Source of the DNA: a virus
DNA length: 42,164 nucleotides
Strand: one strand, 5' to 3'
Virus record (IMG/VR): IMGVR_UViG_3300045747_000694
Location: 1-42,164 of that record
The position numbers and the translations under genes are program-made. How positions within the stretch are numbered: the stretch's first letter is position 1; every line of letters begins with the position of its first letter. Shown one piece after another: positions 6,784 through 27,708 of this stretch. The notes beneath the pieces were generated by a model. That model was not told the origin of the DNA. It saw only the letters and a list, made by a program, of their open reading frames with translations, and ran no database searches.

Positions 6784-6792
6784 CACCCCCTT

Positions 6793-6830: not shown

Positions 6831-6848
6831 ATGTTGTTCAGGAGCCCC

Positions 6849-7094
6849 GTGCAGACCGCAAACCCCAGCCACAAGCCCAAGACGGCAAGCAGCTTGGCCT
6901 TGTGGAAGGGATTCGCCGACGAGCTCCAGAAGATCGCCATGACGACACCAGCCAACATCACAGCCATGGCTCGCCCCAAGCCGGTGAAGATGGGGAACAC
7001 GTCGATGCCCCGCGACACCCCGCCGATGTCGCCAACGAAGGATTCGCTGTCGAGCACGAAGCTCACAACCCCGCCGCCCGTCACGGCGGGCTGA
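6849..7094 (+). CDS. Small Pro/Thr-rich protein (81 aa) carrying the AFxDELxKI family motif; not in the ORF track with this start
   Basis: GTG at 6849 with AGGAG 4 nt upstream (ATG 6831 is an alternative but abuts the hairpin). Contains KGFADELQKIA, matching the motif in four other small proteins of this module. Its TGA at 7092-7094 lies inside the RBS of the next gene. Local GC is lower (~60%). The antisense frame also gives a two-TM ORF, so strand choice is uncertain. Confidence 0.4.
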   Translation: MQTANPSHKPKTASSLALWKGFADELQKIAMTTPANITAMARPKPVKMGNTSMPRDTPPMSPTKDSLSSTKLTTPPPVTAG

Positions 7095-7105
7095 AGGAGA
7101 AGAAG

Positions 7106-8104
7106 ATGCACACCAAGCTGGCAGGCCGCCTCCCGCTCCAGGACATGATCGCCGCGCACATCGAGTCCGCTCGGGTGAAGCTGGCGGCCGCCGAGGGCAA
7201 GGAGTCGAAGAAGGACGAGAAGGACGAGAAGAAGGTCGAGAAGCTCGTGAAGTACGAGAAGAAGGAGCACGGCGGGAAGATCCCGTCCGAGAAGGAGGAG
7301 GAGGCCGAGAAGACGGCGTCCTTCGACGCCTTCGACCCCGACTCCATCGACAAGCTCGCCTCCGCCCTCGAGCAGGTGGCCGAGAAGCTCGCCGGCGACT
7401 CCGTCGAGCTCGGCGGCGAGAAGAAGCAGGGCGGCGAGGTGCTGCCGACCCAGACGCCGACCGGGGGCAAGCAGGCCTACACGGGCGCCAAGGCGAAGAC
7501 CCAGATCCCGCAGAGCTCCAAGGAGAAGGCCACCAAGGACAACCCGGGTGCCGCCACTGCCATGGAGACGGACGAGACCCGCAAGGTCGGCCCCTCCGCG
7601 GCCTACCCGGCCAAGGGCGTCCTCAAGACCGCCGGGCAGACGGTGCTCGAGCGGATCCAGGCCAAGCGCGACGAGGCGGCCGGCGAGGCCGTGCTGGTCC
7701 CGGAGAAGACCGCCGGCGCCATCGACTACGTCCTCGAGAAGATCAAGGCGGCCGAGTTCCACGGCGGCGGCGAGACCCTCGACGACAAGTCGGCCCCCAT
7801 CCCCAGCAACGCGGGCCGGCAGATGATCGCCAGCAACAAGGCCCCCGTCGGCGCCACCAAGCGCGAGGCCAAGGCTCCCCGGAAGGCGGAGCTGGCCCAG
7901 GTGCTCAAGGAGCCGGCCCTCACCTCTTCGACCGACAACACGGTCAACCAGAACCTGCGGAACGCCTCCAAGGGTGGCGTGAAGATCGCAGCGGCGAAGG
8001 CCTACCTCCGCAAGATCGCGGAGGAGGGCTGCACGTGCGGCAAGGACGGTACCTGCCGTCACTGCAAGCTCCAGAAGGCCGTCGAGGCCAAGAAGGCCTC
8101 GTAG
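7106..8104 (+). CDS. Lys/Glu-rich head-module protein (332 aa) with C-terminal CxCx5CxxC knuckle; possible core or second scaffold protein
   Basis: ATG at 7106 after GAAGGAGAAGAAG. Upstream in-frame sequence is RP-rich junk. KEKDEK-type low-complexity N-terminal half. C-terminal EEGCTCGKDGTCRHCK. Confidence 0.6.
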   Translation: MHTKLAGRLPLQDMIAAHIESARVKLAAAEGKESKKDEKDEKKVEKLVKYEKKEHGGKIPSEKEEEAEKTASFDAFDPDSIDKLASALEQVAEKLAGDSVELGGEKKQGGEVLPTQTPTGGKQAYTGAKAKTQIPQSSKEKATKDNPGAATAMETDETRKVGPSAAYPAKGVLKTAGQTVLERIQAKRDEAAGEAVLVPEKTAGAIDYVLEKIKAAEFHGGGETLDDKSAPIPSNAGRQMIASNKAPVGATKREAKAPRKAELAQVLKEPALTSSTDNTVNQNLRNASKGGVKIAAAKAYLRKIAEEGCTCGKDGTCRHCKLQKAVEAKKAS

Positions 8105-8132
8105 CACTACCGAGAAAGGCAAGGAGAACGTC

Positions 8133-8507
8133 ATGCGGAAGATCAGCAACGTCGAGGTCAGCCAGATGATGAAGCTGGCGGCCGAGAACCTCCGGACCCT
8201 CTCGGAGGAGAACCAGGGGCTTCGCGAGAAGGTCGCGGGGTTCGAGAAGAAGGCGCAGGCCGAGACCATCGCTCACCTGATGGAGGAGAAGGGCCTCGAG
8301 CCCGAGGCCTCCTTCCAGGAGAAGGTGGCCGGGCTGCTCCAGCGTGACGACCTCGAGGTCGTCAGGCAGGCCGTCGGCCTGTCGGCTCCCCAGATGAAGC
8401 TCGCCTCGGTCCATGACGAAGGGACCATCGAGGTCGAGGGCATGGGGACCGATGAGGACGGTGGCTCCGCGGCGGCAGGCTTCGCCGCGGCTCTGGCCTC
8501 CGCCTAG
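8133..8507 (+). CDS. Hypothetical coiled-coil protein (124 aa)
   Basis: RBS AAGGAGAACGTC then ATG. Heptad-like N-terminal region. Confidence 0.6.
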   Translation: MRKISNVEVSQMMKLAAENLRTLSEENQGLREKVAGFEKKAQAETIAHLMEEKGLEPEASFQEKVAGLLQRDDLEVVRQAVGLSAPQMKLASVHDEGTIEVEGMGTDEDGGSAAAGFAAALASA

Positions 8508-8562
8508 CTGTCCCATTCGCTGCATCCAACGACACCCTTCAAAGGAATAGGAGACGACAACC

Positions 8563-9048
8563 ATGGCCGGACCGAACTTCGAGCTCATCACCGAGCTCCA
8601 GACCCTGACCCGCCGCGACTTCACCATCGCGGACAGCACCATCCTCGCCCCCACGGGCGCCCTTCCCCTCGTCGACGGCGAGTGGCTCGAGATCAACTCG
8701 AGCTACCAGCTGGCGCGCGGGGCGACCGGCGTCCAGTCGTACAGCCCCCTCACCTTCCCGGTGCACACCGAGCGCGGTCGGTACGACACGCAGGCCATCG
8801 GCAAGGTCAACGTCCTGATGCTCGGCATGTACGAGGCCGAGACCCAGGTGATGGTCGCCTCGGGCATCACCCTGGGCGAGGGGCTCATCGTGAACAGCCT
8901 CGCCTCCGGTGCCCACCTGGGCCGGCGCGGTCTCGTCGAGCAGGGCTCGGCGACGGCCACCACCCTGGTCGTGGGCTACGCGACCAAGCTGCCCGCCAGC
9001 AACGGCGGGAAGCTCCGCTTCGTCCACTTCGGCAACGCGCTCGTGTAG
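8563..9048 (+). CDS. Hypothetical head protein (161 aa), possibly a decoration or minor capsid protein
   Basis: RBS AAAGGAATAGGAGACGACAACC then ATG. Immediately upstream of the capsid candidate. Tandem TAG TAG stop. Confidence 0.55.
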   Translation: MAGPNFELITELQTLTRRDFTIADSTILAPTGALPLVDGEWLEINSSYQLARGATGVQSYSPLTFPVHTERGRYDTQAIGKVNVLMLGMYEAETQVMVASGITLGEGLIVNSLASGAHLGRRGLVEQGSATATTLVVGYATKLPASNGGKLRFVHFGNALV

Positions 9049-9070
9049 TAGCGAGCCAGAACAAGGAGAC

Positions 9071-10198
9071 ATGACCATGAGCGCCACTGCCGTTCCAGCC
9101 AAGGTCCTCAACGACCTCTTCTTCGAGAAGATCGGGTCCACCGAGGGCAAGGACAAGATCGCCGAGTTCGGGGGCACGTACATCCGTGACCGCCTCCGCG
9201 AGGTGAGCTTCGCCCGCAAGATCATCCCGCCCACGCCCGTCCAGCGCAGCGAGCTCCAGCGCTCGGTGAACCACGACACGCTCGTCAAGATCGTGGACAT
9301 CGAGCCGAACTCGAAGGCCACCAGCCTGACCTTCCGCGGTCAGCCGACGGCGCGGTTCATCCGCGCCCCGCGCTTCGAGATCCCCTTCTTCACCATCTCC
9401 TCGGAGAAGTTCGAGAAGACGGAGCAGGAGCTCCTGGCGTACGAGATGCCCATCACCAAGATCATCGAGGAGAACTCGGTGAAGGACATCCAGGCCATCG
9501 AGGATCGCCAGTTCCTGATCTTCGTCGAGGCCTGCATCCAGGCGATGCAGCTCTCGGCCAACGGCGGCACCCCGACCTCCAACAAGGTCAACGGCGGCAC
9601 CGCCGTGGTGTCCTCGGTCATCAAGGGCGCCGGCGCCGTCACCGGCAACGCGAACACCTTCACGGTGTACTCGCTCCAGAAGAACGACTTCGTCAAGCTG
9701 AAGCAGCTCCTGCACCGGCGCTTCCTCCGGTCGGAGCGGCTCCTGATGACGGAGCCGGACTACGACACCCTCTCGACCTGGACCATGACCGAGGTCTGGA
9801 ACATCGCTGCCGAGACGGCGACCGAGGGCTGGAAGAGCAACACCGTGGTGGGCCTGAAGATCATCCGGACCATCAAGACCAACATCCTCCGCGAGGGCAA
9901 CGTGTACTGCTTCACGGCGCCCGAGTTCTTCGGCCGGTTCTACATCCTGAACCAGACGAAGTTCTACATCGACAAGATCGCCAACCTCATCACCTGGCAG
10001 AGCTGGGAGGACATCGGGATGGGCTTCGGCAACGTCGCCGCCGTCACCAAGCTCGAGCTCTTCGGTGGTGGCGTGGTCCCCGGCGCCTCGCCGGACACGG
10101 GCTACGCGGCGGCCCTGCCGATGGACGAGTCCGACCTGAACCCGGTCAACAACCTGGCCGACGCCGGGACGACCTACCCGCAGGTCGACCAGTTCTAG
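9071..10198 (+). CDS. Major capsid protein candidate (375 aa)
   Basis: ATG at 9071 after ACAAGGAGAC. Size and position (downstream of scaffold) fit a capsid protein. Followed by the strongest hairpin in the module. No fold can be confirmed by eye. Confidence 0.5.
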   Translation: MTMSATAVPAKVLNDLFFEKIGSTEGKDKIAEFGGTYIRDRLREVSFARKIIPPTPVQRSELQRSVNHDTLVKIVDIEPNSKATSLTFRGQPTARFIRAPRFEIPFFTISSEKFEKTEQELLAYEMPITKIIEENSVKDIQAIEDRQFLIFVEACIQAMQLSANGGTPTSNKVNGGTAVVSSVIKGAGAVTGNANTFTVYSLQKNDFVKLKQLLHRRFLRSERLLMTEPDYDTLSTWTMTEVWNIAAETATEGWKSNTVVGLKIIRTIKTNILREGNVYCFTAPEFFGRFYILNQTKFYIDKIANLITWQSWEDIGMGFGNVAAVTKLELFGGGVVPGASPDTGYAAALPMDESDLNPVNNLADAGTTYPQVDQF

Positions 10199-10230
10199 TA
10201 CTGGTCCCCTTCGGAGCAGTCATGTAGCTT

Positions 10231-10260
10231 GAGGGGCGGGCGGGAGACCGCCTGCCCCTC
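10231..10260 (+). terminator. Stem-loop after the capsid gene
   Basis: GAGGGGCGGGCGG gaga CCGCCTGCCCCTC: 13-bp stem with one G-U wobble, tetraloop GAGA, then TTCACTTCC. Starts 33 nt after the TAG. Confidence 0.55.
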
Positions 10261-10285
10261 TTCACTTCCAGCTTCAGGAGGTCTC

Positions 10286-10738
10286 ATGGACTACATCATC
10301 CGTCCCGCCTACGTCAGCGGTCCCCCGAGCGACAAGCAGCGCACCCACCCGAAGTTCACGGAGGAGCCGGTCATCGGCGCCTTCCACGTGCGCCGCGGCT
10401 CCTTCATCCGCCTGGACGAGGGCCAGTACGAGGCCGCCAAGCACCAGATCGACACCCTGCTCGAGGCCGACGCCATCATCGTGACCCGCGAGGGCGAGTC
10501 GGCCCCGGTCCAGCAGGCCTCCATGGAGGGCACCAAGCTCCCCGAGGACCTCTCCATCCCCGTCACCCCCATCGCCGGCCAGGCGTGGCCGGACCCCGTC
10601 CAGGTGGCCGAGCAGCTGGCCGCTGACACGGCGGCCGCGGAGGCTGCCGCGGTGGCTGCCGCCGGCACCACCGACGCCCCGAGCGATGTCACCACCACCG
10701 AGACCCCGGTGGCCCGCGTCTCGAAGAAGAAGAAGTAG
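10286..10738 (+). CDS. Hypothetical protein (150 aa)
   Basis: ATG at 10286 after CAGGAGGTCTC. Acidic Ala-rich C-terminal region ending KKKK. Confidence 0.6.
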   Translation: MDYIIRPAYVSGPPSDKQRTHPKFTEEPVIGAFHVRRGSFIRLDEGQYEAAKHQIDTLLEADAIIVTREGESAPVQQASMEGTKLPEDLSIPVTPIAGQAWPDPVQVAEQLAADTAAAEAAAVAAAGTTDAPSDVTTTETPVARVSKKKK

Positions 10739-10741
10739 CCC

Positions 10742-11098
10742 ATGAAGGTCTACAACCTCACGGGCGAGCCTCTCGCCTTCCGGACCAAGGTCCTCCCGCC
10801 CAACGGCGGGAGCATCGACATCCCGGAGCTCGACCTCTTCATCCCGAACCGGGAGAAGGATCTCGCCCGGGCAGGCACCATCTCCTTCGGCTCCCTCCCC
10901 GTCGGGTGGACGCCGAAGGTCATCATCCCTCCCCCACCGCCGGCCAAGAAGGCCACCATCAAGGCGGCCGAGAAGGTGGTCGTCCAGGAGAAGGTCTACG
11001 TCGACGCCAAGGTGGCGCAGGCGGCCCTGACCCCGGACGAGGAGAAGAAGTCGGAGCCGGCCTTCCAGTCCACCGCGGAGAAGTTCAAGAAGAGGTAG
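10742..11098 (+). CDS. Hypothetical protein (118 aa), Pro-rich centre
   Basis: ATG 3 nt after the upstream TAG. High GC3. Confidence 0.55.
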   Translation: MKVYNLTGEPLAFRTKVLPPNGGSIDIPELDLFIPNREKDLARAGTISFGSLPVGWTPKVIIPPPPPAKKATIKAAEKVVVQEKVYVDAKVAQAALTPDEEKKSEPAFQSTAEKFKKR

Positions 11099-11101
11099 GC
11101 C

Positions 11102-11638
11102 GTGTCGGACCCCATCAGCAACAAGATCGACCCTGTCCTGCCTGCCCGGAACGCGAGCGAGTTCGCGGACCTTCCGGCGTCGAACACGCAGCTCGACAGC
11201 TTCATCCAGCTGGTGCGGGCCTACATGCGGGACTACCCGGAGCTCAACCGGCTCATCGCCGGCGAGGAGAGCTCCAACCGGCAGATCGCCTGGGCCATCA
11301 TCGACGCGGTGGACGACTTCAACACCACCCCGCCCTTCACCCGCTTCGGCCTGAACGACTACCCCTCTCGTTCCCTCCTGCTGCGCGCCACGGTCATCAC
11401 GCTGCTCGAGTCCATCGGGCTTCTCCAGACGCGCAACCACCTCCAGTTCTCCGACGGTGGCATCACCGTCGGCGTGAACGACAAGACGCCCTTCCTCCAG
11501 GCCTGGATCCAGCTCTTCCGGAACAGCTACGAGGACAAGAAGATGAAGATCAAGGTCGCCTACAACATCGAGTCGGCCTGGGGAGGCGGCATCCATTCCG
11601 AGTACCGCTTCATCAACAACTACTACGGTGACTGGTGA
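11102..11638 (+). CDS. Hypothetical protein (178 aa), possible head-tail connector or adaptor, assigned by position
   Basis: GTG at 11102, 3 nt after the upstream stop. Ends TGATG-coupled to the next gene. Confidence 0.5.
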   Translation: MSDPISNKIDPVLPARNASEFADLPASNTQLDSFIQLVRAYMRDYPELNRLIAGEESSNRQIAWAIIDAVDDFNTTPPFTRFGLNDYPSRSLLLRATVITLLESIGLLQTRNHLQFSDGGITVGVNDKTPFLQAWIQLFRNSYEDKKMKIKVAYNIESAWGGGIHSEYRFINNYYGDW

Positions 11639-12021
11639 TGGACTCGCAGCTGCGCAAGGCGGGCTACAACGTCCTCATCGGTGGCCTGGCGGACAAGATC
11701 AAGACCAAGGACTTCTCGCCCAAGGCGCTGAAGCAGGGGCGCAAGGTGGAGCACGAGCACACCAGCAGCCCCCGCATCGCCACCGAGATCGCCAAGGACC
11801 ACCTCACGGAGGACCCGATGTACTACGACAAGCTGAAGCTCATCGAGAAGAAGGCGTTCGCAGACGAGCTCATGAAGATCTCGATGAGCTTCAAGGGCTT
11901 CAGCGAAGTGGCCCAGAACTACGCCGGCACCCTGAAGGCTGCGGGTGGCATCAAGAAGGCGAAGAAGCTCCAGGCCGCCGCTGGTGGCGTCTCGAACATC
12001 GTCCCCCGCGTCGGCGGGTAG
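11638..12021 (+). CDS. Small protein (127 aa) with internal AFxDELxKI motif (KKAFADELMKIS)
   Basis: ATG overlaps the upstream TGA. Motif sits at ~residue 75. Gly/Ala-rich C-terminal region. Confidence 0.55.
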   Translation: MDSQLRKAGYNVLIGGLADKIKTKDFSPKALKQGRKVEHEHTSSPRIATEIAKDHLTEDPMYYDKLKLIEKKAFADELMKISMSFKGFSEVAQNYAGTLKAAGGIKKAKKLQAAAGGVSNIVPRVGG

Positions 12022-12030
12022 GAGCACCAC

Positions 12031-12165
12031 ATGATCGTCAAGACCTTCGCCAACGTGAACGACCTCCAGGCCTACCTCACGGCCAACACCATCACGCTCG
12101 CCAAGACCGTCGCCATCTACTTCGACGCGGCCAGCGGACACCACGTCCTCGTCCACACGCCGTAG
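12031..12165 (+). CDS. Very small ORF (44 aa); below the ORF-track threshold
   Basis: GGTAGGAGCACCAC then ATG at 12031. MIVKTFANVNDLQAYLTANTITLAKTVAIYFDAASGHHVLVHTP. Fills an otherwise unexplained 180-nt gap. GC3 is high. Confidence 0.35.
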   Translation: MIVKTFANVNDLQAYLTANTITLAKTVAIYFDAASGHHVLVHTP

Positions 12166-12201
12166 TTCCCACACCTCTTCCTACCCGGTAGGCTGGGAGC
12201 C

Positions 12202-12600
12202 ATGAACCTCGTGACGATGCGCGCCTTCAGGGACGAGCTCAGCAAGATCGCCGCCGATGGCGGCCTTGCCGGGCTGAGTCCGACCATCGTCGGTGCGGGC
12301 ATCGGTGCTGTCGCGGCCTTCGGGGCACAGGTCATCGCCAACAAGGCCCCCAAGGGCGGCGGCAAGTCGAGCCAGCAGATGAGGTACGAGCAGCTCGAGC
12401 GGGACATCAACGCCGAGACGAAGAACCGCAAGAAGCAGGGGAAGCAGCCCACCTTCTACGGAAAGATGAAGCAGATCGCGGCGAAGCCCATGACGCAGAT
12501 GGCCGCTCTCGCCACCAAGCACCCAGCCCAGGCCGCCATTCCGGCAGCCATCCTCGGCGCCTACACGGGCGCTCTCGTCGCCAAGCACCTGACTAAGTAG
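12202..12600 (+). CDS. Small two-TM Gly-zipper protein (132 aa) with N-terminal AFxDELxKI motif
   Basis: MNLVTMRAFRDELSKIAADGG then GLSPTIVGAGIGAVAAFGAQVI (TM1), a Lys-rich linker, and AAIPAAILGAYTGALVA (TM2). GGCTGGGAGCC lies before the ATG. Confidence 0.6.
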   Translation: MNLVTMRAFRDELSKIAADGGLAGLSPTIVGAGIGAVAAFGAQVIANKAPKGGGKSSQQMRYEQLERDINAETKNRKKQGKQPTFYGKMKQIAAKPMTQMAALATKHPAQAAIPAAILGAYTGALVAKHLTK

Positions 12601-12609
12601 GAGAAGACC

Positions 12610-13575
12610 ATGACCCCAGAGATGCAGCTGGCCCAGGCCCTCGGTGGCGCCCCCGACTCGTCGAAGGAGAAGCTCGCCGGGGCCTTCGACGAGATGTCCG
12701 TCGAGGATCTCGAGGGGATGCTGAAGACTGCCTTCTCCGTCACCGAGGAGGGGCACAAGTTCGACGCCGAGCGCGCCAAGATCCGGCGCGAGAAGGCCGA
12801 GAAGATGTGGGCCTTGTCCCAGAAGCACGAGGGGGCTGGCTCCTCCAAGAAGTTCGGGAAGTTCACCAAGGCGCTGCGCGGGTTCTCGCCCGACGTCGAG
12901 GACGAGCCCCGGCACCACGCCTACGTGGAGAAGAAGCACCGCGAGGGCAAGAACGCCTGGAACCCCTTCGGTGGCCTCGCCACGCCGACCAAGGGGGAGA
13001 AGGGCGGCTCGACCATGCAGTACGGCGAGTTCAAGAGCAAGTCGAAGAAGGCCTCCGTCTCCAACACCGCGGCGCTCGTCGCCGACGGCGTCGGCCGGCT
13101 CATGGCCAAGCAGGCCAACCTCCTCGGAGCTGGCCTCCGCATGGCCACCCGCACCCCGATGGCGACCAGGGCCATGGTGGGCGCCGGGGCGGGCGCTGCC
13201 GGCGGCGCGGTGAGGCACATGACCTCCAACGACCCCAACTCCTCGCTGCTCGGCAACATGGCTGGTGGCGCGGCCCTCGGGGCCGGCGCGGGCGCCGGGG
13301 CCAAGGTCGGGGCCAAGGCGCTCCTCCAGAGCGGCAAGCTGCCGGCGGCTCAGGGTGCCGCGGCGCTCAAGGGGGCCAAGGGGTACTCGCAGACCGGCGT
13401 CGGGGCCTACGCCCGGAAGGCGCTGGGCGAGGCCAACAAGGCCGGCACCGCGGTGGCCACCAAGGCGGGCACCACCGGCAAGGCGGTGGCGCTCAAGGCC
13501 AACGCGGCGGCCGCTCCGGCGGTCCAGAAGGCACGGGCCGCCCAGGCCGCGACGACAGCTGGCTCTGGCATCTGA
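12610..13575 (+). CDS. Gly/Ala-rich protein (321 aa), possible internal virion or ejection protein
   Basis: RBS GTAGGAGAAGACC then ATG. N-terminal KLAGAFDEMSVEDLE loosely matches the family motif. C-terminal half is low-complexity GAGAGA with KxGAK repeats. Confidence 0.55.
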   Translation: MTPEMQLAQALGGAPDSSKEKLAGAFDEMSVEDLEGMLKTAFSVTEEGHKFDAERAKIRREKAEKMWALSQKHEGAGSSKKFGKFTKALRGFSPDVEDEPRHHAYVEKKHREGKNAWNPFGGLATPTKGEKGGSTMQYGEFKSKSKKASVSNTAALVADGVGRLMAKQANLLGAGLRMATRTPMATRAMVGAGAGAAGGAVRHMTSNDPNSSLLGNMAGGAALGAGAGAGAKVGAKALLQSGKLPAAQGAAALKGAKGYSQTGVGAYARKALGEANKAGTAVATKAGTTGKAVALKANAAAAPAVQKARAAQAATTAGSGI

Positions 13576-13600
13576 CCGAGGCGGTCATGAGAGGTAGCCC

Positions 13601-15409: not shown

Positions 15410-15954
15410 TCAACATCGAACAGGTAAGCGACGACCATGCGCAAGAGTACCTTCGCAGGCTGAAGGAGGGAGACGATCTCTCCCACTTCGGCATCTCGAT
15501 CAAGGGCTTCTTCGACGTGGTGTGCCGTGAAGAGGGCGAGACGGTTTGGGAGGTCCACCAGCCAAACCTCTTGACGGACTACGGGCGACGCTACTGGGCC
15601 TACGGCAACTTCACCGGCTACGACTACGCCATCTTCACGAGCCCGATTGCGGAGACCCCAAGGGCAGACCGCTACACTCTCGCCGACCACTCAGGTCAGT
15701 GCCAGCAGGCTGCCTTCTGGTACGGAACCAACGACGCCCCCTCGGTCTCCAAGGCGTGGTCCAACACCTTCGGACTGCCCGCCAGCAACAAGACGATCGC
15801 TTCTGTTGGTCTGAGGTCGAATGCTACGGCAGATGCTGGAGCGTATGGGATCAGTTCCATCCTCTGCTACTCGCTCTTGACCCCGATGAAGGTACAGACC
15901 ACCTCCCAGACACTCGAGATCTCGTACCGTCTTACCCTTTCCCCTGGCGTGTGA
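15406..15954 (+). CDS. Hypothetical tail-fibre-associated protein (182 aa)
   Basis: ATGA overlap with the upstream gene. Located between two fibre genes. Confidence 0.5.
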   Translation: MINIEQVSDDHAQEYLRRLKEGDDLSHFGISIKGFFDVVCREEGETVWEVHQPNLLTDYGRRYWAYGNFTGYDYAIFTSPIAETPRADRYTLADHSGQCQQAAFWYGTNDAPSVSKAWSNTFGLPASNKTIASVGLRSNATADAGAYGISSILCYSLLTPMKVQTTSQTLEISYRLTLSPGV

Positions 15955-15961
15955 GGTCCCG

Positions 15962-18900: not shown

Positions 18901-21385
18901 GGCCTTCTCTGCCGCCGCCACCGCCGGCACCCTGTCCTACTCCGTGTGGGACATGCAGGCCGGGGCCGCCGTGGGTCCGGAGTGCTGTTCCGTCATGGCC
19001 AATGTCGGCATCGGCAAGGACAACACCCAGGACTTCACCGGCATCTACGCCGACTGGTTCGTCTCAAAGACTCTCCTCTCGGAGCAGGCGGAGGCGGTGA
19101 AGTTCTGCACGGACATCCTCCCGCCCGTGGGGTCCTCTGCCGTGCAGGCCTACCAGGAGAACTACCAGTACGACTACCGAGCGGCGATGGGCGCCCACCT
19201 CGCTCTTCCTGGATCTCCCATTGCGAACCACGTCATCGACGGTGGGGCGTCTCGCCCCCTCGATGGCGCCGGCGGTAGGGCGTGGATGGGGACCTACACC
19301 TCTTGGAGAGGGCCACAGGTCAGTATCGTCGTGGGGCAGCAGGTCTCCGTGGACCTCGGGCAGGACTTGGAGATCGGCTCCATCATCGTGCGAGGTTGTG
19401 CGCAGAACACGGGTGCCCCCAACACAGCGGGTGCGCTTGCGACTCCCGGTAACGGGTACGGGGGAATGATTGCGAGCATCCTCAGCGCTCCCAACTCTGG
19501 CGGTGCTCCTGCGGCATCCTCCACCGTTCGGTGCGCCGGCAGCAGCAACCTCTCCGGCACGCTCAACACGGCCACCATCACCACGACCGGCGACTTCATG
19601 GGAAGCGCCACGGGGGTGACCGCCAGCGATGGCGCGACGAACATCATCAGCATCGGGGCCAGCTCCTTCCAGTCGGCGGTCAGCAGGTTCTCCCAGACCA
19701 ATGTCGGGATGATCCTGAAGACCACCAGCGGGCCGGACGTGGGGCAGTACCGCATCCTGACCGTGAGCGGCGACGGCTCCACGGTGACTGTGAGGAACCT
19801 CGATCAGACCTCGAAGACCTGGAGCGGCACGGCCTCTGGCATCGCCTTCACGGTCTACGACGGCGTGCAGGACGAGGACCTCATCTGCATCCCCAGCCTC
19901 GGGACGCCTACCTACCGCCTGGTCGTCGAGCGCCTCTCGAACGACGCCAAGACGGCCTATCCGAGAGTCCAGCTGGGGACCACGATCGCGAGCCAGAGCT
20001 GGCAGTGCGTGAAGCCAAGCTGGAACCTTGTGAAGAGGATCTCCTCCACCGGGACCGTGCTTCCTCCAGAGGTCAGCAACAACGGCACCTTCTTCTCGAT
20101 GGATGGTGGGGAGAACTTCGGACACTTCAACCTTCCGACCGGTACCAGTCGGTCGCCTTCTCGATGGTGGAAGGCCGTCATCGACCTCTCCGATCTCTCC
20201 ACAGCAAAGCGGACGGCCCGGTGGTGGAAGTTCGCCGCGCTGGGTAGGGAGTTGAATCTTTGGCAGTACGGGGCTGAGTACTACCTCTCTTCCCTTGAGT
20301 TCTACGACACGAGCGGAAAGAGGATGTTCACCCACGACTACTGCCAGGCTGATACGGTCTTCGCGCAGCCGCAGATGATCAGCGTCTTCTACACGAGGGC
20401 GGACTTCCTCCTCGCGTCCAACGCCGCTGCCCCTCAGTACACCGGCTACAACGGAACCGCCATCCTCGGGGGGACGAGCGGCAACACGGTCACGCTGACG
20501 GGGAGCAACAAGTTCCTGGGCTACCAGCTCCGCCCGAAGGGAGCGCTGGGCACCATCCCGGGGAGCTCGAACGTCTTCAACGGCCACGCCAACGACCCGG
20601 CCTTCCTGACCACGACCGATGTCGGCAGGTTCTTGAAGATCAACACCGGCGTCAACGCTGGGGTCTACCGCATTGCCACCGTCCCCGGTGCGACCCAGGT
20701 CACTCTCGTCACCATCAACAGCGCTGCGGTGACCCTCACGGCGGATGCCGGTCCGGTGGAGTACTCGATCCACGAGGGCATCAACGTCGGAGGGGCGAAC
20801 CCCGACTTCCTCTACTTCACCACGGGGGGCAACTCGGCAGGGCGCAAGGAGCTCACCCTCGCCACCCTCTCTGATGACCTCACGACCGTTACTGTGGTCG
20901 AGAGCCAGTTCGGAAGTCTTTCGGGCCAGAGCTGGGAGATCCGCAGAAGGGCTCTCGAGGATCGCACGCAGACGCCCGGGACGAACAGCGGTGCCAGCGC
21001 GCGGCTCCTCTACGTCGAGGCCATGTACCCCTACCAGTCTGGGGACATCTGCCAGGACACCAAGGGCTACGTGAAGTTCTGGCCCGGTGACATCGGAGGT
21101 ACCAACAAGACGGCCGGAGTCGCCGTGGGTGGCACGGCCAACTTCCAGGCCGCCTCTTCCGGCACCTTCACCCAGGACGATGTGGGGCGGATCCTCCTCA
21201 TCACCTCTGGCGTCAACAAGGGGTCCTACCGCATCTCGGCATACAACAGCACCAGCGAGGTGGCCCTGGTGAACCACTTCACCGGCGCCGCAGTGTCACT
21301 CACCGGGGACGCCTCGGTGACCTACACGATCCTCGGCGAGAGGCGCTTCCGCTTCAGCCGCTACGTCACCTCCCTGAGGTCGTAG
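15962..21385 (+). CDS. Giant tail-fibre or host-interaction protein (1807 aa) with six copies of a ~55-aa repeat module
   Basis: Single uninterrupted ORF with high GC3. Repeats with consensus D(V/L)GR.(I/L).(I/L)..G...G.Y.I...V......VTL......A....G....Y.I lie at roughly aa 205-255, 513-571, 942-997, 1246-1300, 1551-1606 and 1739-1792. Confidence 0.75.
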   Translation: MSQVSALIRVDYQGLGGIRQSLQKANLAFKGALWDMTSLSWTWSTNGIAITPDCIPYPWKHHPALAAGASQMSVRHSFHSDGSTYGFGLAFGTLVGMRSGFDIGRMRFFNSTPHYSVQTDQCVAIGAITLVHDMRSNANTINNGAGSGQGNMFSSVDLDITQIGAPYLHPVYQGTIATTLGASYVPMAQASISAYYYYAHLVTCIRLETGADRGSYLVQSIDRANSRIYLKNMDGSKWVAQATNASVTFSQGYRVSFFNETGVIPNSTGQVAFDGKYDAGDHRGSYIYRIHFEKSGSPSPAAEAQRGSYWLSLRGFLNGNGVAGDLYHQDDGGFTQRISYHSPNTACGFFYNTSMLGMSNAISSGMVLERTNQRLWCVTVDGTQGNSSVGYWNYKSPESFREVCSAAGAPNDPLPVPFTPPASSYARAPAIGSDGTVYVAFSKVADQTGAGWLAIKPDLSRTFVTAAAMAVPTSGDLQPCVVDTTKARTGTTAAASTTSAGHILCAGAGFASADLGRCIKLTGNTFDNGTYLIGTINGATDITVTNLNGSAVSFTGGSGGTFQIGDRIYLFSGGEATWNAGKMSWTDSLSFGTRFTKTVTMTAGAQAYSYPYLGGAPPACVDPLTGRIFWLSADGVKHLNMYDPAAQTVTQRPLSDLAVQVSGSNANPTAPTVMWTVAVNTNTYFRELWVGTDKGHYRFDPDNLSAQFSRFYGTSNGTYAEADGNLQLDGGVTEWAANVAQNIGATQYGFMPDGQVFGILPSWGLSSASYFPMLVKFNREAHNWLSAATIGGNESQAQCLQSTYAFWYTNTVSFFFDPFGALVFYQPNMKAETAKGAIRLVHPSAIHYQWTGSAWTPREVVRGGLPDSVSSPGCLCKPMHTTLDDLVLGVKVKFTSSGAVGGENGEFLGRFGQKGLSRTDGATVIGTNGFVGSGFSALSFTSPDVGRYYVRIESGADQGTYKILTYTNDTSITLQKFNGTAFSAAATAGTLSYSVWDMQAGAAVGPECCSVMANVGIGKDNTQDFTGIYADWFVSKTLLSEQAEAVKFCTDILPPVGSSAVQAYQENYQYDYRAAMGAHLALPGSPIANHVIDGGASRPLDGAGGRAWMGTYTSWRGPQVSIVVGQQVSVDLGQDLEIGSIIVRGCAQNTGAPNTAGALATPGNGYGGMIASILSAPNSGGAPAASSTVRCAGSSNLSGTLNTATITTTGDFMGSATGVTASDGATNIISIGASSFQSAVSRFSQTNVGMILKTTSGPDVGQYRILTVSGDGSTVTVRNLDQTSKTWSGTASGIAFTVYDGVQDEDLICIPSLGTPTYRLVVERLSNDAKTAYPRVQLGTTIASQSWQCVKPSWNLVKRISSTGTVLPPEVSNNGTFFSMDGGENFGHFNLPTGTSRSPSRWWKAVIDLSDLSTAKRTARWWKFAALGRELNLWQYGAEYYLSSLEFYDTSGKRMFTHDYCQADTVFAQPQMISVFYTRADFLLASNAAAPQYTGYNGTAILGGTSGNTVTLTGSNKFLGYQLRPKGALGTIPGSSNVFNGHANDPAFLTTTDVGRFLKINTGVNAGVYRIATVPGATQVTLVTINSAAVTLTADAGPVEYSIHEGINVGGANPDFLYFTTGGNSAGRKELTLATLSDDLTTVTVVESQFGSLSGQSWEIRRRALEDRTQTPGTNSGASARLLYVEAMYPYQSGDICQDTKGYVKFWPGDIGGTNKTAGVAVGGTANFQAASSGTFTQDDVGRILLITSGVNKGSYRISAYNSTSEVALVNHFTGAAVSLTGDASVTYTILGERRFRFSRYVTSLRS

Positions 21386-23217
21386 TGGCCGTCTCAGTCA
21401 TCGCACAGACGACGAACGAGGGGAGCGTGCGCTCTGTCTCCTCGTTCGTCCGAGGTGGGGTGGCTTACCTTGCATGGGCGGTGCAGGGGTTCGGCACCGA
21501 CTGGCAGCTCCAGTGGAAGAGCTACTCCGGCGCCTACTTCACCGAGGTCGTCGCAGACACCTTCGCAGCCTTTCGTAACATGGCGACGATCCTGTCTCCG
21601 GTCGGGGACATCTTGACTGTGGTGTATGCCGACGCCGCCGAGTCGTCTCTCTACTGCCTTCGCTTTCGCCCAACGACGGGCGCGAGGGTATCTGGTCCGA
21701 CGAGGATCGGTCCCGGGAGTCGTCCCTCTCTCGTCTTCCGCGGCAACCTCGAGGGGGACCGCGTAGAGGTCGTCTACGCGCACTCCGCCAGAGAGGGAGT
21801 GTTTGTTCGGGAGAGCTTGGATGGCGGGGCTTCGTGGTCCGGGGAGCGCCCCGTCCTCAGCAACTACGTGAGAGGGTCCTCTGCGGTAGCCGCTGCTCCT
21901 CTCGACGATGGCCACATGTCTCTCTTCCAGATCGGGGTCGATGCGCGGCCGCTCGTGGAGTTGGGGAGCTACTCGAGGACGAGGCCACTCAGCAACATCG
22001 TGAAGCACCCCACACTGGCTGACCGCTTCTTCGTCTCCGAGCCTACCTGGTACGACTCCACCTACTTCACGGACCACACCAAGGGAGGTCTTCGAGTCAC
22101 CAGGGACGGCACCCAGCTGGTGTGGTCGGATGGCGTTCGGCTCGGCGCCGATGATGGGGTGAACGAGGTCGCCCTGCTCGACACCTCCGGGCTGGCCCCC
22201 TCTCTCGTGTCCTCCGTGCACAACAGCAGCGTCGACGGCAGCCTGGGAGACAACCTCGCCTTCTTCACGATCTCCCCCTTCGCGGCCGTTGGTGCCGTGG
22301 ACCTCTTCGGTGCGAGCTCTGTCCCCCTCGTCACCGGCTTCAATCTCTCGAACGACTACATCTACGTGGCGGGGTCGAAGGAAGTAGCTCCCCGTACGAG
22401 CGGTGGCGGCATCGACGTCGTTCGCATCTCTGACTTGGTTACCGCCAGGGTCGTCGGCTCGAGCTCCACCATCTTCGGGCACGCGGTTGGTGTTGGCGTT
22501 CCCCCAAGCGGTGCAGCCATCATCGCGGTGGCCACGCAGGAGAGCGGACAGGAGATGGTGCGGCTCTACCAGGAGAACGGGCTTACCCCGACTCTCCTCA
22601 TCTCCCACAAGATGCCAGCCTACGTGAACAAGGTCATGCTGATGCTGGACACGGCGTCGGTGGGCGACCTCTTCGTGTCGATGGTCGACAGGTTCAACAT
22701 CTACCATATCGAAGGGATGACCTCGGCCATGCGCCTCGTGGCCACCGTCCCCCTTCTCAGCAAGGGGTCCGTCTTCCAGGCAGTGCCTGCCGCGAACGGG
22801 AACATCGTTTGCGCGCTAGGGATGGGAGGTGTCGCCGTCTTCTCTCCGAACGGAGGGATCGTGGCGCAGTCGGTGGCCTCTGGGATCAGCCCCAAGACCT
22901 GGCGGGGCGGCACCACCTACGCGCTGAACGACCTGGTCGTGCCTACTGAGAAGAGCGTCTACGCTCCCTTCAGGAGGTACTTCATCTGCTCGACGGCAGG
23001 CACGACAGGACAGGGCGAGCCAGCGTGGTGCCCAGCGGCCTACGGCACCGTCGTGGACGGCACGGCGAGGTGGACAGAGGTGGGTCCTATCGACGCTGTT
23101 GTCACAGGTGTCGCACTCGACCAGACTAGGAAGCGCATCTACGCAGTGGGCAACGTGGGCGGCTTCCTCGGCAACACTGGTCGTGTGTACTCCTTCGACG
23201 CAACAGGGCTCATCTGA
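21385..23217 (+). CDS. Tail protein with BNR/Asp-box motif and beta-propeller-like repeats (610 aa)
   Basis: GTG overlaps the upstream TAG by 1 nt. One canonical Asp-box, SLDGGASWSG. Recurrent G..V...G.G.V..FSPNG strand-turn segments suggest a propeller. Confidence 0.6.
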   Translation: MAVSVIAQTTNEGSVRSVSSFVRGGVAYLAWAVQGFGTDWQLQWKSYSGAYFTEVVADTFAAFRNMATILSPVGDILTVVYADAAESSLYCLRFRPTTGARVSGPTRIGPGSRPSLVFRGNLEGDRVEVVYAHSAREGVFVRESLDGGASWSGERPVLSNYVRGSSAVAAAPLDDGHMSLFQIGVDARPLVELGSYSRTRPLSNIVKHPTLADRFFVSEPTWYDSTYFTDHTKGGLRVTRDGTQLVWSDGVRLGADDGVNEVALLDTSGLAPSLVSSVHNSSVDGSLGDNLAFFTISPFAAVGAVDLFGASSVPLVTGFNLSNDYIYVAGSKEVAPRTSGGGIDVVRISDLVTARVVGSSSTIFGHAVGVGVPPSGAAIIAVATQESGQEMVRLYQENGLTPTLLISHKMPAYVNKVMLMLDTASVGDLFVSMVDRFNIYHIEGMTSAMRLVATVPLLSKGSVFQAVPAANGNIVCALGMGGVAVFSPNGGIVAQSVASGISPKTWRGGTTYALNDLVVPTEKSVYAPFRRYFICSTAGTTGQGEPAWCPAAYGTVVDGTARWTEVGPIDAVVTGVALDQTRKRIYAVGNVGGFLGNTGRVYSFDATGLI

Positions 23218-24713
23218 TGGCTGACGGCTTCATCACTCTGGTTTCCATTCAGCCCTCTGGCTCGACCCAGGCGGAGACCTTCACCGAGGCCGGCGGCAGC
23301 ACGATGAAGCAGGGCCTCTTCGCGCATCGTCGGCAGAACCAGACCGGAGCCCCAACACTCTCTCCCGGTGCCCCTCTCTTGCCGGGCAGGCTGCTCGCGC
23401 TGACTGCGGGGTCGCTGGCCATCTCGTCGGCATGGAGCACTGTGGCGGGGGCTGTCTCCTTCAACCTCTACTGGTCGACGACTCCGGGCGTCACGCTCTC
23501 GAGCAACAAGATCACAGGCGTCAGCTCTCCCTACGCACACACCGGCCGCACCGCTGGGCAGAGGGTCTACTACGCGCAAACGGTCGTGACGGAGGCAGGG
23601 GAAGGACCGCTCGGCGCAGAGGTGTCGGAAGTGGCGCAGGCTCTTCCCCCAAGCGAGACCGTGGCGATGCTCTCGCCAGTCATCGACTACCCTCTCCGTG
23701 GGTTCCCGCACAGCACGGTCTCCCTCTCCCTGGCCTTCTACGGGGTCGACCCCCGAGCCACCTCCTACAACGTCTACTGGAGCCTGACGCCTGGAGTGAC
23801 CTCCGGCTCCACCAAGGTCGCGGGGATCAGTGGCTCTCCGTTCGTACATGAGGGCCTTCTGGCCGAGACCCCGTACTACTACCGGGTCTCCTGCACGGGA
23901 CCTTCTGGTGAGAGCGGCCTGTCTCCTGAGATGAACGGCACCACTGGCCGCCCCTTCGACGTTGTGGATGCCAACACCTACTTGATGTGGCTGAATGAGT
24001 CGTCTGCCGGAAGCGTACTCACGGACACGGTCCGCAGCTGGACCATTGCGCTGTCTGGTGGGTCCCTGCGAGCGAACTCCGGTATGTCAGGCCGTCTGAG
24101 GGCTGGGAACTCGCTACAGACCTTCGCAGGCAACTACTACCACGCGGTCTCGAACCTCGGCGCCACGAACTCTGGCCTGCTGAACGCCGTCTTCGCGGGG
24201 GAGTTCACCTTCGACCTCTGGCTGGCTGCGGGCAACTACCCGGGCTACCCCGGCATCGTCAACTGGACTCCGACAGGGACTCCGGTCGTCGGCTATGGTG
24301 ATGCCACTGTTCTCGCCAACAAGTGGTTCTACATCGGGTTCAACCGAGACGATCTCGCCAACCTCAAGCTCTACTACCAGTGGCGCGACTCGACAGGCGC
24401 CACCATCACCGGCTACTTCGCCGACCACTTCAATGCCGACTCCCTAGAGAACGGCGGCTTCCACCTCTACACTGTGCGACGCAAGAGTATGGGGGCGGGG
24501 AAGTACCAGACGGACTGTTTCGTCGATGGAGCCCTCAGCTCCTCCTCTGGCCTGGAGAACGCCATCAACGGGAACTCCACCAACTGCGTCTTCGACATGG
24601 GCGGCTACACGCCGCAGGGCTACATCTTCTTCACGGGCATGTACGACATCATCCGCATCAGCAACCGGGCGCGCTCCGATGGCGAGATCGCCGACTACTT
24701 CATCGCTGGATAG
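23217..24713 (+). CDS. Tail fibre protein: two fibronectin type III domains plus C-terminal LamG domain (498 aa)
   Basis: Tandem FN3-like segments (AVSFNLYWSTTPGVTLSSNKITGVSSPYAHTG...YYAQTV and ATSYNVYWSLTPGVTSGSTKVAGISGSPFVHEG...YYYRVS). C-terminal Laminin_G_3-like region ending GMYDIIRISNRARSDGEIADYF. ATG overlaps the upstream TGA. Confidence 0.7.
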   Translation: MADGFITLVSIQPSGSTQAETFTEAGGSTMKQGLFAHRRQNQTGAPTLSPGAPLLPGRLLALTAGSLAISSAWSTVAGAVSFNLYWSTTPGVTLSSNKITGVSSPYAHTGRTAGQRVYYAQTVVTEAGEGPLGAEVSEVAQALPPSETVAMLSPVIDYPLRGFPHSTVSLSLAFYGVDPRATSYNVYWSLTPGVTSGSTKVAGISGSPFVHEGLLAETPYYYRVSCTGPSGESGLSPEMNGTTGRPFDVVDANTYLMWLNESSAGSVLTDTVRSWTIALSGGSLRANSGMSGRLRAGNSLQTFAGNYYHAVSNLGATNSGLLNAVFAGEFTFDLWLAAGNYPGYPGIVNWTPTGTPVVGYGDATVLANKWFYIGFNRDDLANLKLYYQWRDSTGATITGYFADHFNADSLENGGFHLYTVRRKSMGAGKYQTDCFVDGALSSSSGLENAINGNSTNCVFDMGGYTPQGYIFFTGMYDIIRISNRARSDGEIADYFIAG

Positions 24714-24725
24714 AGGGGACTCACC

Positions 24726-25664
24726 ATGATCGCCTTCCCGTACACCGCCCGCTACTTCATCCGGTTCCGCCACTCGGACACGGGGCTCACTCCGTCCTTC
24801 AGCTACTACAAGCGGTCGGACACCCTCGTCGGCGTGACGCCCCCTACCGTCTACGAGGTGGGCAACGGGTCGTACTACTTCGACCACACCTTCGCGGCCT
24901 CGACCTCCCCGGACATCGTCTTCGAGGCGGACGGTGGCGCGTCGATCCCCACCGAGGAGGTTCGGTACGTCTCCGACACCCTCTCGGTGAAGGACTTCTT
25001 CCTGGACGAGCCGGTGTCCCAGGTCGTGACTGACGTCTGGGCCAACAGCGCGGTCTACGGTGCCGGCACGAAGGGGAAGCGCCTCGACGACGTCGGCGTG
25101 TCGGGCGACGCCTACAACGCGGGCACCCTCTTCGGCGCCATCATCAACGCCATCGAGATGATCCGCGGGGACGGACACGGCAACACGGCGGGCAACAGCG
25201 TGAAGCAGGCCTACGACCGCATCGGTGCTCCGATCGGCGTGACCATCTCGGCCGACCTCCAGACCATCAACTCGCACATCACCTCGTCGACAGGCGACAC
25301 GGGCACGGCCATCACCGCCGCCGTCGTCAGCATCAAGGGCGCCAACGACCGGGACATCACCCAGGTCTACAACTTCGCCAGCCACTTCGACGGGCAGATC
25401 GACGTCGTGCAGGCAATGGTCGAGAGGTGCCTCGGGATGCTCCACGAGAACGCCGTTCTCGACAAGTGCATCTACGACGGGACCACCAACAACCTGCGCT
25501 CGGCCCGGCTCCGCATGTACGACAGCTCGGCTCACGCCCAGGCGGCCAAGGCGCTGGGGGACGGGACCACCTACACCACGGGCATGCTCGGCCAGCACTC
25601 CATCGTCGCCGAGTACCTGGGCGGCAACATGTCGAACTACATGGTGGTGCGCGAGATCCCGTAA
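24726..25664 (+). CDS. Hypothetical tail/baseplate protein (312 aa)
   Basis: RBS GAGGGGACTCACC then ATG. High GC3. Confidence 0.55.
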   Translation: MIAFPYTARYFIRFRHSDTGLTPSFSYYKRSDTLVGVTPPTVYEVGNGSYYFDHTFAASTSPDIVFEADGGASIPTEEVRYVSDTLSVKDFFLDEPVSQVVTDVWANSAVYGAGTKGKRLDDVGVSGDAYNAGTLFGAIINAIEMIRGDGHGNTAGNSVKQAYDRIGAPIGVTISADLQTINSHITSSTGDTGTAITAAVVSIKGANDRDITQVYNFASHFDGQIDVVQAMVERCLGMLHENAVLDKCIYDGTTNNLRSARLRMYDSSAHAQAAKALGDGTTYTTGMLGQHSIVAEYLGGNMSNYMVVREIP

Positions 25665-25673
25665 GGAGCTGCG

Positions 25674-26585
25674 ATGCTGGAAGTCACCAAGTTCTGGACT
25701 CGGTCCTTCGACCTCGACAGGGTCGATCTCTTCTGGGAGATCGCCAACGTCCCTGGCCCGCGCTCGGATGCGGACCAGCACGAGGTCTTGGCGCACGAGG
25801 TCTTCGTTCTTCGGGCCGGGGACAGCCCAATGGGTCCGTACGAGCAGATCGGCGGACCGCTTGTGGATCAGTACCTCTTCCGCGATGTGAAGGTGAACCT
25901 CCTTCACAAGTGGAGGCAGTACTTCTACAAGCTGCGGGTCGTGGATCGCCGGACGGGGGAGGCCAAGGAGTTCGGCCCCACCTCGTCCGGCGAGGATGCG
26001 CCCGACCTCATCGCCTCCGAGATCCAGCGCCAGGAAGACGTTCTCTTCAGGGAGTTCGTGGGGAAGAAGGGCTACCTCTTCATCGCCCGGACCTTCGGCC
26101 CAAGGTGCTCCTGCTTCGACGCCACCCTGGGGCGCATCACCAGGTCGAACCACCGTCCCTGCTACGGCACGGGCTGGCTCGGCGGCTACATGCAGCCCAT
26201 CGAGATCTACGCCCAGCTCGACCCCAACCCCAAGAACGTCAACCACAGCTCGCTTCCTCCCCAGCAGCCGAGCGACACCACCGGAAGGATGATCTCCTTC
26301 CCACCTGTGTCCCCCAAGGACATACTGGTCGAGGCAGACAACAGGCGTTGGAGGGTCATCAGCGTTCGCAACACACAGAGGCTCCGCTCCGTGGTGAGGC
26401 AGGACATCCAGCTGCACGAGATCCCCAGAGGGGACATCGAGTACGACCTCCCTGTGAGTGTGGATGAGAGAGCGATGGAGGCCGTCGCCGGCCGCAACTA
26501 CACGAACCCCCAGAACGTCGAGAGCAGCAAGAGCTACACCGACATCCTCGCCGCCTACGGACACCCCAGTGGAACTCTCAGGTAG
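25674..26585 (+). CDS. Hypothetical tail/baseplate protein (303 aa) with FN3-like N-terminal region and Cys cluster
   Basis: RBS GTAAGGAGCTGCG then ATG. N-terminal DLFWE...YFYKLRVVD strand pattern. Central CSCFD...GRITRSNHRPCYGTGW possible Zn site. Confidence 0.55.
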   Translation: MLEVTKFWTRSFDLDRVDLFWEIANVPGPRSDADQHEVLAHEVFVLRAGDSPMGPYEQIGGPLVDQYLFRDVKVNLLHKWRQYFYKLRVVDRRTGEAKEFGPTSSGEDAPDLIASEIQRQEDVLFREFVGKKGYLFIARTFGPRCSCFDATLGRITRSNHRPCYGTGWLGGYMQPIEIYAQLDPNPKNVNHSSLPPQQPSDTTGRMISFPPVSPKDILVEADNRRWRVISVRNTQRLRSVVRQDIQLHEIPRGDIEYDLPVSVDERAMEAVAGRNYTNPQNVESSKSYTDILAAYGHPSGTLR

Positions 26586-26910
26586 CCTCCACCCCATCAC
26601 CAAGCTCGCCTTCATCGACGAGCTCGAGAAGATCTCGCGAGAGGTCTCTCCGCAGGGTCAGGCGAACCGGGACAAGGCCAAGAAGTTCCTGAAGAGCACC
26701 GCCATCATCACGGCAGGCTCTGCCGCCGGGGTGGGGACCTTCATGGTCGGGGACATGCTCGCGAAGAAGCTCTTCGGCGCCGGATGGAACAGCATGCCGA
26801 AGGACGTTCGGCACATGATCCTCACGGCGGCAGGGGGTGCGGCCGCAGTAGGCTCTGCCCACTACGTGAAGCGTCTCGCTGAAGAGCGAGAGAAGTACAT
26901 GAAGGCATGA
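26569..26910 (+). CDS. Small two-TM Gly-zipper protein (113 aa) with N-terminal AFxDELxKI motif; GTG start overlaps upstream gene
   Basis: No ATG is available. GTG at 26569 gives MELSGSLHPITKLAFIDELEKIS, then STAIITAGSAAGVGTFMVGDML (TM1) and MILTAAGGAAAVGSAHYV (TM2). This matches the 12202 paralog's architecture. 17-nt overlap with the upstream gene. Confidence 0.5.
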   Translation: MELSGSLHPITKLAFIDELEKISREVSPQGQANRDKAKKFLKSTAIITAGSAAGVGTFMVGDMLAKKLFGAGWNSMPKDVRHMILTAAGGAAAVGSAHYVKRLAEEREKYMKA

Positions 26911-27683: not shown

Positions 27684-27708
27684 GTGAAGAAGGAAGAAGG
27701 AGCCTGAC

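Follow-up and report, generated by a model that had tools for sequence, protein, structure and literature searches.

A conserved peptide on unrelated proteins of an uncultivated large-phage lineage, a candidate capsid-targeting propeptide

We have analyzed a 42,164-nucleotide stretch of viral DNA (IMG/VR virus record IMGVR_UViG_3300045747_000694, positions 1 to 42,164; hereafter the window), in which a sequence-only reading had noticed a short peptide motif shared by five small proteins. Four of these carriers are real and lie far beyond chance expectation, whereas the fifth, encoded at 12610..13575, has no motif (less than 8 bits with the scoring matrix described below). The motif is essentially N-terminal, a property that the reading had overlooked, and it recurs on otherwise unrelated proteins of related phages. 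The same reading had pointed to the targeting and processing peptides of phage T4, a comparison that is still unproven but has become considerably more plausible in view of the N-terminal position, the unrelated protein bodies, a scaffold-like carrier, an accompanying protease and the likeness of the motif's tail to a head-enriched tetrapeptide. Judging from the sequences, we consider it on balance probable that the peptide is a capsid-targeting propeptide, that is, a functional analogue of the T4 capsid-targeting sequence (CTS) that arose in another lineage and has another sequence.

The motif and the proteins that carry it

The core F-x-D-E-L-x-K-I is present four times in the window, at positions 6912, 11857, 12226 and 26611, always in plus-strand frames. 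The back-translated pattern TTYNNNGAYGARYTNNNNAARATH gave these four matches against 0.00 expected, and none of 100 dinucleotide-preserving shuffles was matched. We have also used a 14-column scoring matrix derived from 221 motif instances of relatives, near-identical ones being excluded. The four sites scored 28.8-34.7 bits, while the runner-up in the six frames, on the minus strand, reached 10.9 bits. The consensus obtained from 74 distinct strict instances was [AGS]-F-x-[DE]-E-[LM]-x-K-[IL]-[AGS]; FFEEL.K[VL]G and FSDELQKIA are among the variants of the tag. Variability rose fast to near background at the flanking positions, giving the motif sharp bounds.

A start codon was found at most 12 codons upstream of the motif in 85% of 191 distinct instances (median 6), compared with 44% for control Phe residues (median 16), and an in-frame stop lay within 30 codons upstream in 44% of the instances and 13% of the controls. 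The distribution of residues, with hydrophobic F0, L4, I7 and A8 on one face and charged D2, E3 and K6 on the other, fits a single amphipathic helix. Being amphipathic and net acidic, and having no hydrophobic run, the peptide does not resemble a Sec or Tat signal peptide. We have found no paper that prints the motif strings, and a tblastn search of GenBank phages with a 25-residue consensus tag gave no match, the query being too short for that database.

The first tagged protein of the window (class A; 6849..7094, plus strand) carries GFADELQKIA at 6909..6938 (34.7 bits). It is small, rich in Pro, Thr, Ser and Lys, and probably disordered; the description of the tagged proteins as otherwise Gly/Ala-rich fits the other three and fails here. 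Its start is ambiguous between GTG 6849, which has AGGAG 4 nt upstream, and TTG 6894 or TTG 6900, which are nearer to the motif. The C-termini of class A proteins also show a conserved Pro-rich PPPV(T/R/K), for example TTPPPVTAG or PPPPVRT (7050..7094 in the window, and its orthologues), so that these proteins bear conserved peptides at both ends, with a probably disordered linker between them.

In the second protein (11638..12021, plus strand), the motif AFADELMKIS is internal (11854..11883, 28.8 bits). It directly follows a separate domain, DUF5661 (Pfam PF18905; 39 bits for a cut-off of 27, 1.1e-9, residues 31-73), and is followed by a Gly/Ala/Lys-rich tail. The protein is identical to the JGI gene call P0001 (127 aa), and the order of DUF5661 and motif is repeated in P0002-P0005. 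Our literature search found no paper mentioning DUF5661. Elsewhere (P0006-P0028, P0033), DUF5661 is very often followed by KKAFWxGFxKxA, and the class A N-terminus (6900..6938 in the window), with its hydrophobic-W-x-G-F-x-DEL-x-KIA arrangement, resembles a hybrid with that string. Some DUF5661 proteins (P0010, P0023, P0040) have a DEL-type motif at the N-terminus instead.

The remaining two proteins share the same architecture, as had been noticed from the sequence: each has two hydrophobic segments separated by a Lys-rich linker. The class B protein (12202..12600, plus strand) carries AFRDELSKIA at its N-terminus (12223..12252, 34.5 bits) and has its hydrophobic segments at residues 16-50 (Gly-zipper) and 108-131. 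"Gly-zipper" is used here as a descriptive term only, the match to Pfam Gly-zipper_Omp (PF13488) being 16.6 bits, below the cut-off of 25. By BLAST, its orthologues were confined to the closest relatives, and the class B protein alone, used as a query for related loci, retrieved none. The class C protein (26569..26910, plus strand), which agrees with JGI gene call P0179 (113 aa), carries AFIDELEKIS at its N-terminus (26608..26637, 29.3 bits); a charged linker follows the motif, and Gly-zipper hydrophobic segments lie at residues 40-65 and 82-100. Its family comprises 23 members in relatives, P0180-P0183 keep the N-terminus from the first residue onwards, and a search of a large protein database gave only five close homologues. 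An AF2 model of low confidence (pLDDT 57) placed a separate helix at residues 9-23, covering the motif. For the five proteins originally listed, the PHROGs search gave no match and the Pfam search returned DUF5661 plus sub-threshold matches only.

We have rejected the fifth of them (12610..13575, plus strand; LAGAFDEMSVEDL) as a member, since its AFDEMSVEDL aligns in orthologues to M-[ST]-V-E-E-L-E and the F is not conserved. The protein has a conserved N-terminus of its own, MxPEMxLAxAL, and a downstream K-T-A element, EDLEGMLKTA, at ~12700..12732, in the place of which the related locus L035 has GREMAHQHGEELMKTA.

The identical codons used for the conserved residues in all four window copies could suggest an element acting in DNA or RNA, or a chance match, and the codon-position GC of 6849..7094 (0.48/0.57/0.87), like that of the antisense "shadow" ORFs of the window, together with an open antisense frame opposite, could suggest an artefact. 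The comparative data refute such an origin, whose probability we regard as negligible. Synonymous codons were mixed among the 74 distinct instances (Asp as GAC in 36 and GAT in 30, five codons for Leu, four for the final Ala). This free variation indicates that selection acts on the peptide and not on the DNA, and the sequence-only reading had rightly taken the motif for protein-level conservation rather than a DNA repeat. No match arose in the 100 shuffles, and across 80 related loci the strict motif was found 64 times on the strand of the capsid gene and never on the opposite one; a relaxed motif gave 118 coding-strand and 5 opposite-strand matches. As for 6849..7094, 53 relatives have an ORF with the motif in syntenic position, 2.2-3.2 kb upstream of the capsid gene, and in 31 of them all three antisense frames opposite to it contain stops, so that the plus frame is the correct one. 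The odd codon-position GC is due to the Pro/Thr/Ser/Lys-rich composition of the protein. A minus-strand ORF with two apparent transmembrane segments at 6800..7100, although of normal codon-position GC, was rejected as a gene: the relatives keep the plus frame and close the antisense ones, and the ORF would also have to include an Arg-rich tail that looks like junk and overlaps 5947..6783.

In IMG/VR, a degenerate DNA pattern matched at least 120 stretches, and the pooled loci yielded at least 171 non-redundant tagged proteins (at most 70% identity; median 116 aa). A few pattern matches were clear chance hits within cellular-type proteins, such as transketolase. The relatives that share the 10-residue motif span 29-70% GC. 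Many tagged proteins are Gly/Ala/Lys-rich with Gly-zipper hydrophobic segments, as are 12202..12600 and 26569..26910, and Pfam identified several enzymes among the tagged bodies: an SNF2 helicase, MazG with a P-loop domain, GNAT with glyoxalase, a Peptidase_C92 amidase and a Zn peptidase. One could suppose that the carriers are diverged paralogues that have merely kept an ancestral N-terminal segment, a relic of duplication devoid of signal value. The common architecture of classes B and C and the many Gly-zipper-rich carriers would fit such a relic. We nevertheless find it very improbable, because the bodies include unrelated folds with Pfam families of their own (SNF2, C92, GNAT, MazG) and because the motif is sharply bounded, with flanks near background.

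Two further families were seen among these loci. A small domain, GKYPIxDxxHARNALARVxQxG, recurs, often after the tag or after DUF5661 (L073 at 18305, L055 at 14950, L087 at (-5565), L007 at 12157, and P0023). A tagged family of ~280-400 aa combines HExxH (AHELGHG) with Gly-rich hydrophobic segments (L043 at 16090, L044 at 16160, L005 at 15573, L064 at 13901); relatives encode it 5.5-7.2 kb downstream of their capsid gene, and the window has no member of it. A Pfam scan of the L064 member, the only one of the four that was scanned, gave no match.

The head module and a short K-x-A element

The motif co-occurs with the terminase-protease-capsid module down to relatives whose capsid proteins are 30-43% identical and whose GC is 29-46%. 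In those distant relatives, and in most of the close ones, it is carried by an acidic scaffold-like protein encoded between the protease and the capsid genes. In the window, this protein (5947..6783, plus strand) has a degenerate internal motif, AYVQELRSIEKTA, at 6238..6276. The family consensus is AEADxxGR[IV]MAHA[YF]xQELxKIA, and relatives have the canonical motif at that position, with AF.DEL.KIA in the scaffold-like proteins of L102, L177 and L184. In L177 and L191, the C-terminus of the protein lies 19 residues past the motif.

The prohead protease (4157..5875, plus strand) has the fold of T4 gp21 and herpesvirus assemblin at residues ~35-245, a Zn-ribbon insert and a C-terminal extension of ~320 residues. 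Among PHROGs it matched one with the annotation head maturation protease (3.5e-8), whereas PDB sequence and Foldseek searches gave no matches. Its homologues, found in more than 1420 clusters of a large protein database, include gp222 of Salmonella phage Arash, gp19 of Bacillus phage G, and proteins of cluster C mycobacteriophages and of Gordonia and Rhodococcus phages, and several are annotated as capsid maturation or prohead protease. Among the homologues, P0153, P0155, P0164, P0168 and P0178 have DUF5661 inserted in the linker between the protease and C-terminal domains. Four others (P0061, P0074, P0103, P0156), ~930-990 aa long, contain intein/Hint and LAGLIDADG Pfam domains, which suggests that inteins are inserted in their protease genes.

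The end of the long motif, x-K-I-[AGS], is similar to a short element enriched in head proteins. The window has five copies of E-K-[IT]-A where 0.5 would be expected, all of them in the protease and two scaffold-like proteins. In the 3737 residues of the head-module proteins (2105..10198), [DE]-K-[ITLVM]-[AG] occurs 20 times against 2.3 expected (~9-fold), a count that none of 1000 shuffles reached, these shuffle statistics being optimistic and the exact probabilities unreliable since both the tetrapeptide and the "head" group were defined after the data had been seen. The other 9269 residues contain 2 copies against 1.7 expected, and three permuted control patterns were at expectation. In Arash, hydrophobic-[DETQ]-K-[QTSIVLM]-A is found 14 times in gp218-226 (0.5 expected) and once in the remaining proteins of the 41 kb region (0.9 expected). 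Although the Arash pattern and grouping, too, were chosen with the data in view, the enrichment is large and is repeated in an independent genome.

Several of these copies are conserved. The N-terminal arm of the capsid protein (9107..9175, LNDLFFEKIGSTEGKDKIAEFGG) has two: site 19 (FFEKIG) was present in 58 and site 28 (KDKIAEFGG) in 54 of 64 relatives, and the arm is kept in distant relatives. Two scaffold-like proteins, 7106..8104 (charged and of low complexity) and 8133..8507, both on the plus strand, have six copies together; in the latter, REKVAG is kept in 29 and QEKVAG in 22 of 46 relatives. The N-terminus of the protease, predicted to be disordered, contains a conserved LF..ALEKTAG at 4214..4246, in which K27 is at least 90% conserved, and its x-K-T-A is kept even by relatives whose aligned protease segment is 29% identical. 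The short element, which in Arash takes the form hydrophobic-[DET]-K-x-A, may be the cleavage code of this clade of gp21-type proteases.

The peptide might be nothing more than a recognition and cleavage site of the prohead protease, placed at propeptide ends and at polyprotein-like junctions and without any role in targeting. The K-[IT]-A end is indeed what the long motif has in common with the enriched short one, and the motif lies at domain boundaries of fused proteins (L073, L103 and the DUF5661 protein of the window). Such a site would, however, leave the strongly conserved F-x-D-E-L half unexplained; with the motif within ~10 residues of the start codon, a cut would free just a tiny peptide; and the protease works inside proheads, which its substrates must still reach. 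We therefore regard a purely proteolytic role as unlikely.

Rather improbable, in our view, is a docking helix for some hub other than the capsid, such as a host factor, a phage chaperone, a membrane complex or an intracellular phage compartment. That the ~190 kb contigs have tagged genes a long way from the head module, that many tagged proteins have transmembrane-like Gly-zipper segments, and that the motif sometimes stands inside a protein or at its C-terminus, as is often the case for short linear interaction motifs, would all suit such a hub. It is at odds with the most widely conserved carrier found, the scaffold-like protein whose gene lies between those of the protease and the capsid protein, and with the related short elements of the capsid-protein arm and the protease N-terminus. 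The net acidic character inferred for the peptide also argues against direct membrane binding.

Capsid targeting and its precedents

In the capsid-targeting reading, the tag helix would dock its bearer inside the assembling procapsid, with the scaffold core, the inner surface of the capsid or the protease as candidate partners. The F-x-D-E-L half would be the docking part and the K-I-A end the part that is cut. As the scaffold-like protein uses the same helix, cargo could piggy-back on a scaffold contact. The gp21-type protease (4157..5875) would probably cut at or beside K-I-A, freeing the cargo within the head, and would likewise break up the scaffold proteins. The presumed cargo, consisting of Gly-zipper membrane-active proteins (two in the window) and, in relatives, of enzymes, would later exit with the DNA. 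The sequence-only reading had suggested that the tagged proteins could be ejection or membrane-pore proteins, which is still a conjecture. Docking, encapsidation, cleavage and ejection are all inferred from sequence. A broader proposal, which is possible but which we hold with some reserve, is that this lineage (~180-210 kb genomes, globally distributed) uses one portable tag, along with a K-x-A cleavage code that a gp21-type protease reads, to fill the head with a variable arsenal destined for the host. This arsenal would comprise helicases, amidases, peptidases, acetyltransferases and many Gly-zipper membrane proteins.

Several observations weigh against capsid targeting. The clade is uncultivated and its tagged proteins are known from genes alone; the long motif is absent from the structural block of Arash, the nearest cultured relative; and the definition of the short element after inspection of the data, mentioned above, applies here as well. 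In the long motif, K is often preceded by Q, S, T or M and not by D/E, so that the long motif is not strictly tied to the short one. The ~190 kb contigs have tagged genes dispersed along their length, also at tens of kilobases from the gene for the capsid protein. The tag is thus not confined to the structural block, location alone is no marker of a virion protein, and the placement of the tagged proteins in a virion gene block, as first proposed, was too narrow. Nor is the motif N-terminal throughout, since it follows DUF5661 in 11638..12021 and stands between domains in L073, L103 and L122.

The closest precedent by function is that of T4, where the CTS (MKTYQEFIAE) is borne by the internal proteins IPI, IPII and IPIII and by Alt, and where gp21 cleaves at a consensus L/I-x-E. 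T4 CTSs are N-terminal propeptides of 10-19 residues that are present on unrelated internal proteins and bind the prohead core; their targeting determinants lie in the first residues and their processing determinants in the last, and gp21 removes the propeptide (PMC9026906). The peptide described here is likewise short, mostly N-terminal and attached to otherwise unrelated proteins, and a gp21-family prohead protease is encoded alongside it. It differs in that its consensus has no sequence similarity to the T4 one, and in that its end lacks L/I-x-E and has instead x-K-I-[AGS], which recurs as the short peptide [DE]-K-hydrophobic-[AG]. Unlike the CTS, it can also stand inside a protein or at its C-terminus, and a scaffold-like protein carries it. 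The capsid protein, too, is of a different lineage, with Arash, at 30% identity, as its nearest cultured relative.

Giant phages offer a second comparison. The cleavage motif of phiKZ and SPN3US ends in Glu, and we know of no long conserved docking motif that their propeptides have in common. In these phages, which have many head and ejection proteins, N-terminal propeptides of head proteins are cleaved by a gp21-type protease, and a short cleavage motif recurs in scaffold-like propeptides (PMC10052503). The large genome and the short motif repeated several times in scaffold-like proteins are shared with our lineage, in which cleavage is putative; unlike in those phages, a 10-residue motif is conserved here across relatives of 29-70% GC. 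As regards cargo, 116 proteins are present in Arash virions, among them subunits of RNA polymerase, a helicase and a cell-wall hydrolase (PMC10585845), which indicates that a cargo-rich head is normal in the wider group.

Short terminal peptides also dock varied cargo inside HK97-fold shells in encapsulins, through cargo-loading peptides, and in scaffold helices (80alpha gp46 / SaPI1 CpmB; the C-terminus of the HK97 protease), where a scaffold and other proteins have such a peptide in common. These docking peptides are usually C-terminal, and encapsulins have no protease. The present consensus differs from the encapsulin cargo peptide, and the window holds a large terminase fragment and a phage capsid protein, whereas an encapsulin shell gene comes with no packaging machinery. 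By analogy, the peptide would be akin in function to the T4 CTS and the giant-phage propeptides without belonging to either by sequence; what would be new is a sequence-defined tag spanning a whole lineage, in an uncultivated clade.

To our knowledge, apart from the T4 CTS, few sequence rules predict which phage proteins are packed in the head and injected. Should the tag indeed direct loading, one could predict from sequence alone which proteins are injected by hundreds of large phages that have not been cultivated. The recurring short motifs would, if the reading is true, also suggest a way to read the specificity of gp21-type proteases, the K-x-A signature being present as well in Arash, for which mass spectrometry data exist, and the tag would be a compact means of packaging foreign proteins in engineered capsids. 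All these implications depend on what can be deduced from sequence.

The window and its genomic context

The window has 65% GC. Its morphogenesis block (44..31823, plus strand) opens with the C-terminal part of a large terminase (plus strand; phrog_675, 9.6e-19) and includes the major capsid protein (9071..10198, plus strand; phrog_2522 major head protein, 1.8e-10), while most of its other genes had no family match. The DNA of 5900..13600 gave zero matches in GenBank phages. We have found at least 175 relatives of the capsid protein in IMG/VR, many of them on contigs of 176-210 kb, and proteins of the window itself on a 153 kb JGI contig. Among 185,579 GTDB genomes, the capsid protein had a single match, on a 6.5 kb contig of a metagenome-assembled genome, which leaves a prophage without support. 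The closest cultured relative, Arash, is a 181 kb myovirus with 30% capsid-protein identity. We infer that the window is a fragment of an uncultivated large phage rather than a prophage.

Two conserved genes between the terminase and the protease, 2105..3169 (354 aa) and 3431..4156 (241 aa), have no family match, and a portal protein was not identified in the window. In relatives, homologues of the genes at 25674..31053 follow the capsid gene at a distance of ~5-9 kb. Compared with these, the window has ~13 kb of additional genes at 12610..25664, including one for a protein of 1807 aa and two for Laminin_G_3 / ConA-like proteins (13601..15409 and 23217..24713). On the minus strand, at 37328..40008, the ORFs of a VWA (CoxE-like) protein and of an AAA-type ATPase overlap by ~570 nt in different frames; probably, one start codon or both are wrong.

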